64,000 nucleotides of DNA from Euglena gracilis (lineage: Eukaryota). Below are positions 9,034 through 18,000 of this stretch, piece after piece (position 1 is the stretch's first letter; each line of letters begins with the position of its first letter). The notes beneath the pieces are model-generated. The model was not told the origin of the DNA. It saw nothing but the letters and a program-made list of their open reading frames with translations, and did no database searches. A program made the translations under genes and the position numbers. The stretch is taken from positions 20,322,642 through 20,386,641 of the forward strand of contig CP154954.1 in NCBI GenBank assembly GCA_039621445.1, written 5' to 3'.

Positions 9034-12000
9034 CTCTGCCGACGGGGCCGCCAGCATCCCGGCCGATTTGCAACGCTGCTGTTCATTCGCAACAACTGGC
9101 CATTAGAAGTGGGTGGGTGTCAGACAGCATTAGAAGTGGGTGGGTGTCAAATAGAGAAGTGGTAATATTCAGGGGAAATTTGGGGAGGAGAACACAGGGG
9201 AAAAAAGAAGAAGACAGGCAGAAACGTCTGCGGACGGTAACCGAGTTGATTGCGCCGGTTCCAGCTGCCATGTTGACAGTCCAACTCATGACCCTGCACT
9301 TCTTAGCAACGAAACCGTCGACACCTTGCCCAGTAAAAAAAAAAACTTATCAAACACACTTCTTGCAGCATCTGCGCTACATTTTTTCACCCATCACGGG
9401 CTAGATTCACCAAAAGAGTCATCAACGGTGCCAATCAGAATAAGAGTTGAAGCCATCCTTGCAAGGCCATGGCTCAGCCCGGCGCTTCAGACCAGGGAGC
9501 TCCTCTGAGACGTCGACGAGGTGGGCCGCCCCGGCAGCCCAGCGCAGCAACTCGCACACTGGCAGAAGCTGGTGGTCTGTGGGAATCGGACACAAGTGCA
9601 TTTACAGTCAGGAATCTGCACCGGACGTGGGGCATGGGAAATACGTGGGGCATGGGAACAAATGTGCTGATGCTTGCCATATGGTATCCACCTGTGTCAT
9701 CATGCACATGTTTAAATGAATGCAAAACACGTAATATTTACTTACAGAAATGCTTGTTATGCATGGCCTATACTACATGCATGGCATGCAGTTCACAAGT
9801 TCGGCCACGGGCCTTCGGTGAATGGGGGGGAGGCAATTGGTTTCGGAAGTTATGAATGATCTGAAGTGCCATAGCCACCGCTGTGTGAGAGGAAAACTCA
9901 GAACTCATGCTTCGCCACAGCCTCGTTTTCCACGGGGTTCATGGAACACGTGGAGTCATGCCACTGACACTGACACTGACACTGACGCTTGGCACTTCAG
10001 AAAGGGGGTTCTTCTTCTTGGGAACAGAAAGGCATGACTGCCACCAGTGGAGGAATGCACGGGTGGCAAAACTTATGGTTGCAAATGTGTACCATCTTAA
10101 ATTGTTAAGATGATTCATAAACACGCTTTGTTCCCCGGGAGTCCCTCGTCGGAAGAGGGGGAAAGCAGTGGCGTGTCTGGAGTAGACCATCCGCCCGCCT
10201 GGCTTTAGGAGGGCGAAGGCATGAAGGGCGAGCTGCAGCTGAAGGGGATGGAGCTGGCCTCGTGGCAGGCGACGGTCAACAATTGCGTTTGCTGGCTGGC
10301 TGGCAAGCTTTTGAAAACATGGCACATCACCCACAAAAAAAAAGATAATAAAAAAAAGTGGTGTGCCCAAGTTTGTGTCAAGCACCAGGAACCAAATGCC
10401 AGTTCTGAATGGCAACGCCTCACCCACAAAGGCTCCGACAGTTGAATCCTTTCGACAAAATCCCAGAAGTCCACAGCTCGGGCCCCTTCTCGATAAACAA
10501 CCAAAACAGCAGAGCTATCCTCTGTGGCCAGAACCACAGGCTGGCAATGTCCAAGAAACTCCATGCCTGGGGGAGCTCCGTTGGAGCGAAACCGAGGCCT
10601 GGCCCCCGCCTCAGGGCTCCACTTCCGCCACAGCTCCGGCGCCTTGCGGAACGTCCCGTCGCCGGAGCACGGCACGTCGCACAGGATGCGGTCGAAGGGG
10701 CTGTGGGCAACGCCGCCGCTGCTCCGCCTGAGGTGAGTGGCGGCGGGTCGAACACATGGTGGTGGTGTTCGCCGGCGGTTCCCGCTGCGATTCCGTGACG
10801 TCGATAATTGGATGAAAAAGATTCACACCATGTGTGTATATCACTATCGTCTGTCGATTTGGCAGCCCCATCCATACCTCTGGTCCAACAGGGGTGCAGG
10901 GGGGGGGGCACTTGTTTCGGGAGCGGGTCCCCCGATTCTCAGGTTCCAAGGGAGATTTTTGTGAAATTCATGGTGTGCCGAAGCGTGTTTGACGTCAGGA
11001 ACAGGGTTTGGGTTTGCGTTCAGTTGTCACGAGGAATAGGGTTAGGGTTTGGTGTTTTAGATTTTGTTAGGAGATTTGGTGTTTAAGGTGTTTTTGATGC
11101 TTTAGAAAAAATTTAACAAAATTTACACCAAAATTAGGCCAAAACTTATTAAGCCTGAGTTTAGGACTAACTTGGTCCAAACTGCCTAAAAAAAAAACGG
11201 AAATGCAAATGCAAGGAAATGCAAATCACACCCCTAATCCTACTCCAAGAATTAATACAAATCGAACCTAAAACGGTGACAAAAATGGTGATTCTGCTAT
11301 GGACAAAAACGATGTGTGCATTCACCATTGATCCCACTCTGCCATCCATTCACCAGTGTCAGAGATAATAAGTGGTAAAATATAAGGCAGCTCCGTGCCT
11401 CTGCCCCCTCCCCCCGGGAGTTGTGTGACCTAGGGGTGAGGTCCCACTTGTTTGGGACATCCCCAAACGAACTGAAATGGACTTTTTTGGAGAAAATTAT
11501 GTTCCAAACGGCAGGGCACTCTAACCAGAGGGGGCCATCCGGTAAAGATTTCTTTCTTGTAGGACCAAGGGAGAGGGCAGGGCCAACCCCCCTTAGGGCC
11601 CCGGGTGTTAATTTTAGTTTGGGAAACAAACAGGACGAAATCCCTTCCGGTCCGACGGGGGGGGTATCCACCCACCCCTCCTTCCCTGGGTCAACACCTT
11701 AAAAAAAAAACCACAGCAATCACCTGCGGCTTGCACTTTGAGGATGGGGGAGGGCTGCAGGTCCACCACAAGAGCAGGCGGCAAGAGCAAGGCAGCCGGA
11801 GGGGAAGGAGCGGTGCTGGCCAGAGCCGCAGCCAGTTAGCCGGGCGGCGATCGCCTCGCCGCGCTCGCACGTCAGCACCAGCGCCGGGCTGCCCAGCCGG
11901 CGGAACTGTCGCCGCAGGTGGGCCGTCCGCAGCGGGTCGGGACGGGCGGGGGCGCACAGGTGGGGCGGGGAACGGGGAGCCAGGAGGGGACAGCGGGACA

Positions 12001-15000: not shown

Positions 15001-18000
15001 TGAGTTATCCCCTCCCCCGTTTCATCGCAACACAATCTGGAGGAACACATCCCTGTAAGTTCAGTGGGGACTCCTGACCCTTTCCTCCCCTTCGGACCAC
15101 TTTCCCTTCACCCTGCATGAGCCTTCACAAAATCCCCGGGCACACCCTCCCATGCTTGTGCTTACCGACCGGGGGGGGGGGTGGGTGCTGTAGGGTGCCT
15201 GCCCCTAGCAGGCACACCCCCCGGGGGGGGGGGGGATAGGGGTCCGGGCCGGACCCAGAAATTTTTCATTGAAAATGGCCGTTTCCGGGCCCCCGGCGCC
15301 TTCGGTGCCGGGGTCGGAGGGGGGTGCCTGCTAGGGGCAGGCACCCCCCAAAACCCTACCCCCCCCCGGGGGGGGGGTCGGATCGGGTGCTATGGGGTGC
15401 CTGCCCCTAGCACCCACCCCCCCCCCGTGGGGTAGGTACCCGACTAAGCACAAGTGGTAGGTACCCGACTAAGCACAAGCCTGCACCCTCCTTCCTGCAT
15501 CCCTGTCCAGCGACGCGATTGGACCCACCCTGACCCCCCCATCCTTGTTGCCCGTGCTCCGGCTGACGTCAAAAAACACAAGTCCGAGGCCGGCCAAAAT
15601 CAAAACAGTGTGTCAAAACCCCCAGAGGGAGCAAGCCAGGGCCACCAACAACCGGTGAGGGCAGCCGCATCGCACAACAAGGGGGAAGGCAATACCGGTA
15701 ATTGGTGTTTTTGTCGGAGTTTGATCACTTTGGGGGATGGGTACGGGAGTTTGCATGGCCTGCCGACCTAAAAAAAACAACAAAAAAACAAGGAACTCGC
15801 AGGAGAGCCGGGGCCAAAAACGAGAATTCGACCTCCTGCTGCCTCTCGCCCTCACCCCTTGTAACGACAGCACTCAAAATGGATTTTTGGTCAGTTTAGT
15901 CAGTTTACCGAAATGTGCACATCGACCAAAAAAGGCTTAAATGCGAGATGCACCACCTCAGACACAGCGATATGTGAAGAAGGCCAGCCTCCTCACAGGG
16001 CAGAAATGAAAGGTTTGGCGTGAAGAGAGGCCTCATGCAGAGAAGAGAGGCTCATGCACAAAAGGCAGCGGGATTCAGGCGGGACGTTAGATCGGGCCAA
16101 ATGAGAAAACAGGGCGAGTGAGACATCAGTTGTGCAGCATCCGGGCAAAAACCCCGTGCAATAACCAGCAAATGTCTAAACATGGGTTTTCCAATCAGGA
16201 TCAGGCCGACTTTCATTGATCTGCCAGGCGACCTCGTCGGAAGCCCAAGCAATCCGCTCAGTTCCGACCAGAGGCCAGCAAGAAAGACCAATGACATACA
16301 TGTGCGGCACCAATACCACATGCACGCGCACGCAGACGTCACATATGAACATAAAGGGAGATTGAAATGAGGCGCAATGCTTTTTCAGAACCCCATTTTA
16401 AGTGTTGGTTGCTCCCAGGAGGGGGTCACCCAACCACCTAGGTCAGTGTGAAACAGTCCAACGCCAGGGGTAAGTGTTTGGGTCCAGCTGGAGAAATTCC
16501 GGTGTGGGATATTAAAATAAAAATGATGAAAAGTTTTGAGGGGTTTTTCTTTGAGGCGAACACGAAAAAATATCGTCCAAACCCTGGAATTCGATGCAGA
16601 GGATCAAAAATGATAAATGATAAAAGCGGCTTTGAGGGATTTTTTCTGATGGGATTATTGGCTTCCCCCCCCCATTGTGCAGTGCAGATCACCCCAGGAA
16701 AAAAAATAGCTGATGGCAACAGGCCAACGGAAATAGGGGGAAATGCACCTTGAAAGAAATTTGGGTTTCAAGCAAACTGTAAGGTAAATTTTCAGGTTAC
16801 AAACAAGGTAAAAAGGGCTGGCAAAAAAATATGATTTGAAACCAAATGGAAAGTTCCCAAGAAACAACATACAAAGCAATGGTCACCTAAAAGCAGCCAG
16901 AAAGCATCGATTGGATTAAATACAAGAGCAAATGGCCATCGTTTCAACATGAGACTGGTCAAAAAGACGATATAAAAATGCTGTCCCGATACAGGAGGGT
17001 TTCCCACAGATTCATGCTAACGACTTGAAAAAAAAACCCTTGGCTTTGATTGATGAGTATTTGTGATTATTCGTGATTGTGATTATTTCTGATTTCTGCT
17101 GCCACCAAAAAAAAAAGCGTCCGGTTGTCATTTTCCAAAGATTCAATGCACCCATATTGTACAAGGTAGTTTTGAGATTTTTGGTGGTATGTTGCAGGAT
17201 TTTGTGAAAGTGTTCAGCAAAATTTTGTAAAAATATCGTTTTCTGAAGGATGACACAGGTTCCTGGAGTAACTCAACTTTGATTTGGTACTGTTCGTCAC
17301 TTTGGACCTTTTTTGGCTCAATTGTTTGGGGTTTGGGGCTGTTTTCGCCATTTTGTTCAATGACCTTTCGCCAGCACATATCCTTCTCTGACCTCCAGTT
17401 CAACATCAACTGCATGTTCTCCAATTCCCTGGACTTTTGCACAGCCAATAAAACAGGTGAAAACATGGGATGATGACTCGGATAGACAGAGGGGAGGACA
17501 AACTATGGCAGAGAGGGTGGCAAAGAGCAAAAGACCTGAGGGAATTCCATCCTTGATAGAAAATTCGTTTTCAGAAGAACGTTCAAATATGGGAGAAAAT
17601 GTCATTTGTGATTATTTGTGGTCATTTATGGTCATTTGTGACCATTCGGTATAACTCACGATTTTTCATGACTATTTTGTGATTTTGGGAAATATCCAAC
17701 TTCGTTGCTAATATATGATTATTTATGACTGTTCGTGGCACGAAATTGCCGGAAATCCTTCAGCCAAACTGGCTAATGGCTGATAGTTTGGCGGCCTCAC
17801 CAAACTTGAGCAGGAGTCAGAAATCAAAAAAACCCCTTTCTGTAGATCAATTCCTTTTTGGGGGGAAGGGGGGAAGGGGAAAGGGAGGAAAGAGCGGGAT
17901 GTATTCTTCAAGGAAAAGAAATAAGCTTCTGGAGTTCTAAAGAAGCTCGGAAGGTTGGAAAACCCATCCAAATACTGACTCCGTATGCTTTGGGAATACC

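Follow-up and report, generated by a model that had tools for sequence, protein, structure and literature searches.

The introns of an NSUN2-like gene of Euglena gracilis appear to be typical euglenid nonconventional introns, a class that probably derives from MITE-type insertions with CAGG...CCTG ends. Two length classes, 8 and 7, were observed both in the unpaired ends of these introns and in the TSDs of MITEs in the same DNA. This resemblance is consistent with the published transposon-insertion origin and is not proof of it, and we regard the link as plausible. A preliminary description of this DNA had pointed out the resemblance and read it as a candidate intron-generating transposon system; the observation was confirmed, and the interpretation was partly supported.

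The NSUN2-like gene and its introns

The window, meaning the whole stretch of DNA analysed, comprises 64,000 nt of Euglena gracilis DNA (GCA_039621445.1, contig CP154954.1, 20,322,642-20,386,641, forward strand). On its minus strand lies a gene two of whose exon-bearing frames matched the RsmB/F family (E 2.5e-05 and 6.9e-06), and the best solved relatives of its product were human NSUN2 (E 9.4e-08). Removal of the introns gave an unbroken frame of 436 aa that includes GGRMVYSTCS and NPVENEAVV and in which the methyltransferase motifs checked were all present (5/5). The gene is predicted to encode an NSUN2-like RNA m5C methyltransferase, and it is the intron architecture that marks it as euglenid.

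Junctions were taken from Logan contigs presumed to be RNA (X1-X3) and from raw RNA-seq (X21). Spliced contigs or reads gave at least 15 joints in the window; 11 among those listed fall in the NSUN2-like gene, and nine of these 11 are also backed by one to five raw RNA reads. The gene contains 13 introns, 11 placed by listed joints and two indirectly by side lengths and reading frame, and none of the 13 has GT/GC-AG borders. They are listed below with the unpaired nucleotides on the donor and acceptor side.

i1, 16264..18023, minus strand: 3+5, GTG-CAG ... CTG-GTCGG, next exon A; terminal stem of six pairs at (3,5); joint 16263>18024 without sliding
i2, 13415..16211, minus strand: 3+4, AGT-CGG ... 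CCG-CGCC, next exon G; 12-pair stem at (3,4); joint 13414>16212 without sliding, from contigs of X1-X3 only (zero X21 reads); 2.8 kb, with nested repeats and the MITE 15151-15483
i3, 13190..13324, minus strand: GC-rich and ambiguous, with three equivalent registers, one of which gives 3+5; joint 13188>13324, sliding 2
i4, 12529..13140, minus strand: 3+5, GAT-CAG ... CTG-CAGGC, next exon A; joint 12528>13141
i5, 12072..12465, minus strand: 3+5, stem start CCU/GGG, nine-pair stem at (3,5); joint 12071>12466
i6, 11939..12018, minus strand: 80 nt, 3+4, GCC-CGG ... CCG-TCCC, next exon G; five-pair stem, overhang sum 7; joint 11937>12018, sliding 1
i7, 10703..11821, minus strand: 3+5, CAG/UUG (G.U pair), stem of four pairs, then a mismatch; joint 10702>11822 without sliding
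i8, 10261..10604, minus strand: 3+5, GGC-CAG ... CTG-CCACG, next exon A; placed by side length (98 nt at 10702, matching exon 10605-10702) and frame, its joint being absent among those listed
i9, 9952..10178, minus strand: 3+5, CAC/AUG, the third pair being a C.A mismatch and seven pairs following it; joint absent among those listed; a 31-nt side length at 9920 matches and the frame yields GGRMVYSTCS
i10, 9561..9916, minus strand: 3+4, GGC-GAAGC ... GCUUC-UGCC, next exon A; joint 9560>9920 with three differing contig letters between, read as a synonymous polymorphism 9919 A>G
i11, 9282..9474, minus strand: 3+5, CAU/AUG, 12-pair stem; joint 9281>9475, sliding 2, five X21 reads
i12, 9024..9231, minus strand: non-GT-AG, no terminal stem; joint 9023>9232
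i13, 8324..8921, minus strand: 3+5, AAC-CAG ... CTG-TGTGC, next exon A; joint 8322>8921, sliding 1

The borders of eight introns had been given in the preliminary description, whose list lacks i1, i5, i7, i12 and i13. The listed joints agreed within sliding ambiguity for i3, i4, i6 and i11, and for i10 provided that 9919 A>G is polymorphic, while the borders of i8 and i9 fit both the side lengths and the 436-aa frame. The intron placed at 13418-16214 was displaced by 3 nt, the cDNA joint fixing it without sliding at 13415-16211. A junction shift by a whole codon, which had been set against the transposon reading in advance, thus occurs in one of the eight, and its overhang sum is still 7.

With the 5' spacer fixed at 3 nt for counting the stem register, nine of the 13 introns have unpaired ends of 3+5=8 nt, three have 3+4=7 nt, and one lacks a terminal stem. 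The five introns to which 8 nt had been assigned (i3, i4, i8, i9 and i11) were reproduced, together with the ambiguity noted for i3, and so was the geometry of the three assigned 7 nt. In 10/13 introns the ends form at least five consecutive pairs with an overhang sum of 8 or 7, and two more fit if one mismatch is allowed; in the remaining one, i12, the ends are unpaired in the fold (z-score 0.81) and the sole stem lies at (8,10). A blind stem search was run with at least five consecutive pairs required and 156 mismatched end pairs as control. The result showed an overhang sum of 8 in 7/13 introns compared to a control rate of 0.051 (binomial 1e-6), so the 8 class is far above chance. A sum of 7 was found in 3/13 compared to a control rate of 0.071 (binomial p 0.06), a class that is marginal as a count. 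Overhang peaks at both 8 and 7 had been expected; the first is clear and the second marginal. No clean sum-9 intron was seen among the 13.

Euglenid nonconventional introns have reportedly also been treated by Milanowski et al. in 2014 and 2016. The splicing code for this class reads 5'-N3CDG ... CH'GN5-6 followed by R in passages of Nomura et al. (2025, PMC12501133), which put the full signature at 61.2% genome-wide in E. agilis. The introns of the NSUN2-like gene share with this class the non-GT-AG borders, a stem from +4, the 3-nt donor and 5-nt acceptor spacers (9/13), a purine at the start of the next exon (12/12 introns with defined register, all of which themselves also begin with a purine) and slidable junctions (9/13; 0.44 expected, p 0.058). 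The full signature N3-CDG ... CH'G-N5-6 plus purine is present in 5/13 (i1, i3, i4, i8 and i13) and the donor-side N3-CDG in 8/13, the rest having the same geometry but different triplets or a spacer of 4 nt. They differ from the class in three introns whose 4-nt acceptor spacer is outside the published code, in four stem triplets outside CDG/CH'G (CCU/GGG, CAC/AUG, CAU/AUG and GAA/UUC) and in the stemless 9024-9231.

MITEs with CAGG...CCTG ends in the window

Elements with CAGG...CCTG ends carry perfect 8-bp TSDs in six cases and perfect 7-bp TSDs in three; one further TSD is ambiguous and one imperfect. They are listed below, all with no strand assigned.

3301..3563: MITE, TIR starts CAGGGG; 8-bp TSD CTTCGGCG
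3785..4007: MITE, TIR starts CAGGCTTC (17/18); 8-bp TSD ACACCAAT
15151..15483: MITE within intron i2, TIR CATGC/CAGGC; 8-bp TSD CACCCTCC
21573..21859: MITE, TIR starts CAGGGG; 8-bp TSD CTGTTGAA
56243..57449: element, TIR CAAGG/CAGGG; 8-bp TSD CCTGGGCA
60317..63264: element, surrounding the element 61860..63127, TIR starts CAGGAATG; 8-bp TSD CCCTGTTG; new here
61860..63127: element, TIR starts CAGGGTTGC (18/19); 7-bp TSD GCGCGAG
48284..48742: MITE, TIR CAGGGC/CAAGGC; 7-bp TSD CCCCCAT
5360..6204: element, TIR starts CAAGGTTGGG (18/20); 7-bp TSD CCGCTCA; new here
41675..43179: element, TIR a CAG and then a G run; TSD readable as 7, 8 or 9 bp
414..493: element of 80 bp with CAGGGTT ends; imperfect 7-bp flank repeat (6/7)

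The two elements marked as new were missing from the preliminary description. Seven of the nine TSDs given there are perfect at the length assigned, namely 8 bp at 3301, 3785, 15151, 21573 and 56243 and 7 bp at 48284 and 61860; the 7 bp assigned at 41675 and 414 did not hold up in the same way, the former being open to three readings and the latter matching at 6/7. Among 47 strict CAG...CTG TIR pairs, TSD lengths were 0 in 31, 1 in five, 2, 3 and 4 in two each, 7 in two and 8 in three, and none was of 5, 6 or 9+ bp. The three perfect 7-bp TSDs are not re-readable as 8, and the elements with 7- and 8-bp TSDs have the same CAGG start without a family split.

The elements may be hAT MITEs, a label drawn solely from TSD length and TIR start. 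The CAG/CAA-then-G start of the TIRs presumably agrees with the hAT terminal motif. TSDs of 7 bp are unusual for hAT and nearer the 7-8 bp of the P superfamily. In TSD length, the six elements with 8 bp resemble hAT (or P) MITEs, and the three to five that make 7-bp TSDs differ from hAT. No transposase domain was found in the 10 ORFs scanned (183-283 aa, longest included) out of 39 ORFs of at least 170 aa. A coding exon was recognisable at 0/9 MITE empty sites, so no element was caught behaving as an intron.

A probable route from insertion to intron

Except in i12, the intron ends pair in a stem starting at +4, and cleavage of the RNA falls 3 nt ahead of the stem and 5 (sometimes 4) nt behind it, next to a purine. 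The non-autonomous DNA transposons of the window, with CAGG...CCTG inverted ends, make target duplications of 8 or 7 bp. In the origin that we favour, such an element inserted into an exon, whichever way round, would yield a transcript with N3-CAG...CTG-N5. Excising the element plus 8 nt from the RNA would restore the uninterrupted exon, which would make such elements ready-made nonconventional introns. The introns would then descend from such elements, and the 3+4 introns from insertions with 7-bp TSDs. On this reading the introns of this gene would be old, the TSD halves on their intron side having decayed. Knock-ins in passages of PMC12501133 showed that the N3-CAG/CTG-N5 layout with stem pairing and a next-exon purine suffices at a foreign exon site, and wholly artificial 50-bp inserts (N3-CAG, CTG-N5, 12 paired bases, purine) were spliced from a foreign exon.

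The preliminary description had equated an intron with an element plus one TSD length of flank. The arithmetic stands, the length outside the stem being 8 or 7 in 12/13 introns and local TSDs being 8 or 7. Direct traces of insertion proved scarce. Blastn of the 13 introns against the 64-kb window matched 0 intron ends to any repeat family, its matches being limited to the nested repeats of i2 and low complexity in i13. Nor was the expected excess of flank identity in TSD register found, which pooled over 12 introns was 27/93 (expected 0.25-0.33, permutation p 0.58). A TSD signal is retained in 1/12 introns. In this intron, i9, a 6-nt direct repeat, ACTCCA, lies at both junctions in the exact predicted TSD register; identity in the register is 6/8, and the 3' spacer equals the last 5 exon nt at 5/5 positions, a match with a chance of ~0.012 over 12 introns.

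Introners and further introns of transposon origin are described for Micromonas, Aureococcus, Amoebophrya, Polarella and Fritillaria in passages of PMC11282704. Likenesses are that the elements are short, non-autonomous and equipped with TIRs and TSDs, and that an intron amounts, here as arithmetic, to the element plus one TSD copy, whose removal restores the exon. There, element and TSD provide the splice sites on which the spliceosome acts, whereas here an RNA stem sets the distance to the cut sites; moreover, no intron here is a recognisable copy of an element in the 64-kb window, and the TSD signal is confined to i9. The same passages name CAG/CTG a TIR, report TSD-like repeats at junctions and describe spliceosome-independent removal of nonconventional introns as full-length circles. 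In Euglena agilis ACOI 323, gapC intron 4 is a nonconventional intron of recent gain with a direct repeat of eight nucleotides at its junctions, the length predicted for a young 3+5 intron; passages of PMC4770533 attribute this repeat to double-strand-break repair. Earlier publications thus already contain the MITE origin, the view of CAG/CTG as a TIR, the TSD-like repeats and a young intron with an 8-nt repeat, and the preliminary description rightly called a general MITE origin a prior suggestion. The explicit match of 3+5=8 and 3+4=7 to free MITEs was not found in the published passages on these introns, and the N5-6 code given in them does not mirror the 7/8 TSD spectrum.

Alternative explanations

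It is quite possible, if short of probable, that the link is real for 8 and not for 7. The 3+4 introns would then be the lower tail of acceptor flexibility or mis-assigned stems, and the 7-bp TSDs would come from the same transposase as the 8-bp ones, either as sporadic variants or as 8-bp TSDs that have decayed, so that the 7-to-7 correspondence would be uninformative. The marginal 3+4 count agrees with this, as do the mere five pairs in two of the three 3+4 stems (one in very GC-rich sequence), the ambiguous and imperfect TSDs of 41675 and 414, and the common CAGG start. Mutagenesis in passages of PMC12501133 also points this way, some splicing persisting with a 3' spacer of 4 (~20% transcript). 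However, cDNA fixes the junctions of two non-slidable 3+4 introns, one 3+4 stem has 12 pairs, and three perfect 7-bp TSDs resist re-reading; nor was a clean sum-9 intron or 9-bp TSD seen here, though a spacer of 6 (a 30-40% drop in the same passages) splices better than one of 4. Three introns and between three and five elements underlie the 7-to-7 pairing.

Offsets of 3 and 5 nt set solely by the splicing machinery, independently of transposons, would make the resemblance a coincidence, which we consider unlikely. The introns would then have a different origin, for example in the repair of double-strand breaks or from conventional introns that were converted, and CAG ends with 8-bp TSDs would be what hAT- or P-like elements show in any genome. 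Consistent with this are the 11/12 introns without TSD residue, the missing repeat-family match in the window, the authors' break-repair reading of the gapC repeat (PMC4770533), a full CDG/CH'G-N5-6 signature in only 5/13 introns with other triplets in four, and a published spacer tolerance of 5-6 rather than 4-5 in passages of PMC12501133. Coincidence would nevertheless have to bring the terminal trinucleotides, the total offset and a minor class shorter by one into agreement and to place the i9 repeat in exact register, and break repair leaves the inverted ends unexplained.

Still less probable is the reverse direction, in which splicing is older and transposons gained CAG...CTG ends and a fitting TSD since spliced-out copies survive, so that the elements would mimic introns and not be ancestors of all of them; the free elements do look young (perfect TSDs, TIRs of 13-18 matches) beside introns that look old (no TSD residue) and have more varied stem triplets, but this reading predicts the same geometry as descent from MITE-type insertions.

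The NSUN2-like gene and its splice junctions

Stop-free frames on the minus strand of the window carry RsmB/F-type m5C RNA methyltransferase motifs. The Pfam family PF01189 matched two frames that carry exons (E 2.5e-05 and 6.9e-06), both slightly short of the curated cut-off owing to the small size of the pieces; for the [14 protein letters not shown] exon, the top-scoring relatives of solved structure were human NSUN2 chains (E 9.4e-08). These matches and structural relatives make 'NSUN2-like' a fair name for the predicted gene. Removal of all 13 introns gave a 436-aa open frame, which includes [43 protein letters not shown] and HDQNTGGFF and ends at a stop at 8108. 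The transcript extends 5' past ~18240 into letters absent from the window, so that the gene's 5' end has no assigned position. A search with exact prefixes (12-30 letters) of the upstream exon on both strands of the window gave no match; at least one further 5' exon lies outside the window.

Junction evidence came from the assembled contigs of runs X1-X3 (presumed RNA) and the raw RNA-seq reads of run X21 (taken as RNA by its species label), placed on window 1-18400. At least 11 joints were assigned to the gene among the 15 listed (124 further), and X21 reads back 9 of these 11. Introns 9952-10178 and 10261-10604 are absent among the joints listed and are compatible with side lengths of 31 and 98 nt.

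Introns of the NSUN2-like gene, with nucleotides outside the terminal stem (donor + acceptor side) and joints (+ coordinates, last base before > first base after)
16264-18023, minus, intron, 3+5; joint 16263>18024, 1-5 X21 reads
13415-16211, minus, intron, 3+4; joint 13414>16212, contigs, 0 X21 reads
13190-13324, minus, intron, 3+5; joint 13188>13324, contigs, 0 X21 reads
12529-13140, minus, intron, 3+5; joint 12528>13141, 1-5 X21 reads
12072-12465, minus, intron, 3+5; joint 12071>12466, 1-5 X21 reads
11939-12018, minus, intron, 3+4; joint 11937>12018, 1-5 X21 reads
10703-11821, minus, intron, 3+5 (sum 8 in the stem search only with one mismatch allowed); joint 10702>11822, 1-5 X21 reads
10261-10604, minus, intron, 3+5
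9952-10178, minus, intron, 3+5 (sum 8 in the stem search only with one mismatch allowed)
9561-9916, minus, intron, 3+4; joint 9560>9920, 1-5 X21 reads
9282-9474, minus, intron, 3+5; joint 9281>9475, 1-5 X21 reads
9024-9231, minus, cDNA-confirmed non-GT-AG intron without terminal stem; joint 9023>9232, 1-5 X21 reads
8324-8921, minus, intron, 3+5; joint 8322>8921, 1-5 X21 reads

None of the 13 introns has GT-AG borders on the coding strand. Seven of the eight introns named in the preliminary description stood, but the eighth, placed there at 13418-16214, is given by cDNA as 13415-16211 with no sliding possible, a shift of one codon. Joint 9560>9920 has three letters between its sides; at position 9919 the window reads A, while the X1-X3 contigs and one X21 read have G. 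The change is synonymous (GCT>GCC on the coding strand) and probably reflects polymorphism between strains or an error in the assembly.

Geometry of the intron ends

The published code for nonconventional splicing is N3-CDG ... CH'G-N5-6 followed by a purine, and in the experiments reported with it no change of the donor spacer was tolerated, whereas an acceptor spacer lengthened by one (30-40% drop) was better tolerated than one shortened by one (~20% of wild type) (PMC12501133). With the donor spacer fixed at 3 nt, the acceptor overhang was 5 nt in nine and 4 nt in three of the 13 introns, which reproduced the 3+5 and 3+4 overhangs described earlier for five and three introns, the third of the latter with its corrected coordinates. 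A purine is the first base of both the intron and the next exon in 12 of 12 cases. Intron 9024-9231 does not fit the published code: folding gave no end-to-end stem (fold z-score 0.81), and the nearest stem lies 8 nt from one end and 10 nt from the other. Overall, the introns of this gene are ordinary nonconventional introns, and this architecture points to a euglenid. Junctions were slidable in 9 of 13 (0.44 expected, p 0.058); slidable introns make up 84.4% of all introns in published data (PMC12501133). An intron end near 18240-18260 reads CTG, six nucleotides and G, and could be a 3+6 case (sum 9) or a CAG acceptor.

Since the overhang sum is independent of where a slidable junction is placed, a blind search for outermost stems of at least five consecutive pairs was performed on the 13 introns. 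The result showed a sum of 8 in 7 introns and of 7 in 3, compared with rates of 0.051 and 0.071, respectively, among 156 mismatched 5'/3' end pairings (binomial tails 1e-6 and 0.06). The sum-8 class is real beyond doubt. As a count the sum-7 class is weak, but cDNA fixes the junctions of two of its introns, neither of them slidable, and one of these two has a 12-pair stem.

CAGG-ended elements and their target site duplications

Elements flanked by target site duplications (TSDs) were searched for around the nine coordinates of the preliminary description and by two coordinate-free scans, and the results agree.

CAGG-ended elements in the window
3301-3563, element, perfect 8-bp TSD
3785-4007, element, perfect 8-bp TSD
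15151-15483, element, perfect 8-bp TSD
21573-21859, element, perfect 8-bp TSD
56243-57449, element, perfect 8-bp TSD
60317-63264, additional element, perfect 8-bp TSD
48284-48742, element, perfect 7-bp TSD, not re-readable as 8
61860-63127, element, perfect 7-bp TSD, not re-readable as 8
5360-6204, additional element, perfect 7-bp TSD, not re-readable as 8
41675-43179, element, TSD readable as 7, 8 or 9
414-493, element, flank repeat 6/7 only

Seven of the nine TSDs described earlier are thus perfect (five of 8 bp, two of 7 bp), but that at 41675 is ambiguous and that at 414 imperfect. The inverted ends of the 8-bp-TSD elements begin with CAGG (CATG once, CAAG twice). Element 60317-63264 contains element 61860-63127, so that both TSD lengths occur at one locus. 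The 47 inverted pairs that strictly fit CAG...CTG had a TSD length of 0 in 31 cases, 1 in five, 2, 3, 4 and 7 in two each, and 8 in three; in a relaxed scan of 1384 pairs, the sole 9-bp and the 12-bp TSD fall in palindromes. Control scans for terminal inverted repeats (TIRs) with the 63 other start trimers gave mostly G/C runs, palindromes and tandem repeats. Further long inverted repeats (I1, I5, I7, I9 and others) were set aside as other element types with no clean TSDs.

No transposase domain was found by Pfam in ten long open reading frames (183-283 aa, longest included) from 39 of at least 170 aa; these ten gave weak PHD-finger and P10-like matches only, below cut-off. The label 'hAT' therefore follows from TSD length and TIR start only, and the elements are candidate hAT elements. 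The mixture of 7- and 8-bp TSDs is nearer to the listed range of P-type elements.

The proposed link between introns and elements, and further features

The observation that intron overhangs and element TSDs share their lengths was confirmed by the cDNA joints, the stem search and the TSD scans. The further proposal, that an intron equals a small non-autonomous transposon (MITE) plus one TSD length, stood in part: the sums match the TSD lengths, but the family tests, which cover the 64-kb window, and the pooled residue test did not support it. None of the 13 introns matched a repeat family at its ends; the only intron-repeat matches came from repeats nested within the 2.8-kb intron, which recur at 20146-22805, and from a low-complexity part of 8324-8921. 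Comparison of the K nt on either side of the stem, the predicted TSD register, gave agreement at 27 of 93 positions (permutation p 0.58), and the expected excess of flank identity was not seen. An exception is intron 9952-10178, where intron and exon end in the same five bases (6/8 agree overall); over 12 introns, a 5/5 match would arise by chance with a probability of ~0.012. Support for the link consists of the geometry and this one register-exact repeat. Frames across nine reconstructed MITE empty sites were low-complexity and none was coding-exon-like; no element was seen to act as an intron, nor was any intron recognised as an element. A coincidence of intron geometry and TSD length would account for the pooled residue at chance; the repeat in 9952-10178 speaks for the link.

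The local CAGG-ended elements carry exactly the cis features that sufficed in published experiments, in which artificial 50-bp inserts with the code features and 12 paired bases were spliced out of a foreign exon (PMC12501133). A CAGG-ended insertion with an 8-bp TSD would be expected to undergo precise removal, and it is somewhat probable that the nonconventional intron class descends from such elements. Mimicry, in which the elements imitate an older splicing system, is a rival reading of the same shared features. The pairing of 3+4 introns with 7-bp TSDs is a weaker claim than class descent, possible but rather doubtful. Its prediction is sharp: 9 should outnumber 7 if splicing tolerance alone decides, and the local TSD spectrum instead favours 7 over 9. 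The rival here is a link that is true for 8 only, with which the low sum-7 count agrees and to which the cDNA-fixed 3+4 junctions are opposed. On the most far-reaching reading, which we consider unlikely though worth stating, nonconventional splicing in euglenids would amount to precise excision at the RNA level, matched to a single superfamily of DNA transposons; the spacer sum (3+5 or 3+4) would equal the TSD length (8 or 7), so that every exon insertion of a CAGG-ended element would start as a harmless intron, and active elements like those of the window would still make introns.

At stake are how the nonconventional introns of euglenids arose, which in E. agilis account for ~72% of introns (PMC12501133), and which machinery removes them. 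The idea is largely published. A general MITE origin, as the preliminary description noted, is in print: it was proposed in 2013 by authors who remarked that euglenid genomes had so far yielded no identified transposable element (PMC3935182), and a MITE-like source was suggested again later (PMC12501133). CAG/CTG has been termed a TIR, with TSD-like repeats at junctions (PMC11282704), and the eight-nucleotide direct repeat of a recently gained, strain-specific intron (intron 4) of gapC in E. agilis ACOI 323 was interpreted as break repair (PMC4770533); general mentions only occur in PMC11170887, PMC6221363 and PMC12621601. The main-text passages covered by the literature search contain no explicit equation of 3+5 with the 8-bp TSD of identified free elements, nor a hAT link. 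The added value lies in free elements whose ends and duplication length are the right ones, now seen in contrast to the 2013 remark, and in giving the loose MITE idea a numerical form, a rule by which the spacer sum is the same as the TSD length. If this rule is true, the euglenid genome would tolerate a transposon family via excision from RNA, which would account for the abundance and variable positions of such introns.

Several further features were observed. A (CACTGA)4 microsatellite lies at 9962-9986, within the intron that has the junction repeat. A dispersed ~1.3-kb repeat (71-87% identity) occupies 13815-15142 in the 2.8-kb intron, and its copy at 20146-22805 is split by extra DNA that includes MITE 21573-21859. 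The summed X1-X3 contig depth reached hundreds to thousands at 3071-3684, 6141-6754 and 8597-9210, on G/C-run repeat elements, including one stretch inside intron 8324-8921; this reflects either abundantly transcribed elements or repeats from many loci. The sole Rfam match in the window at gathering thresholds was a tRNA at 55472-55543 on the minus strand (RF00005, 37.1 bits). An open frame at 46077-46685 (minus strand) gave weak PHD-finger matches (E 7e-04, below cut-off) and may belong to another gene as an exon.
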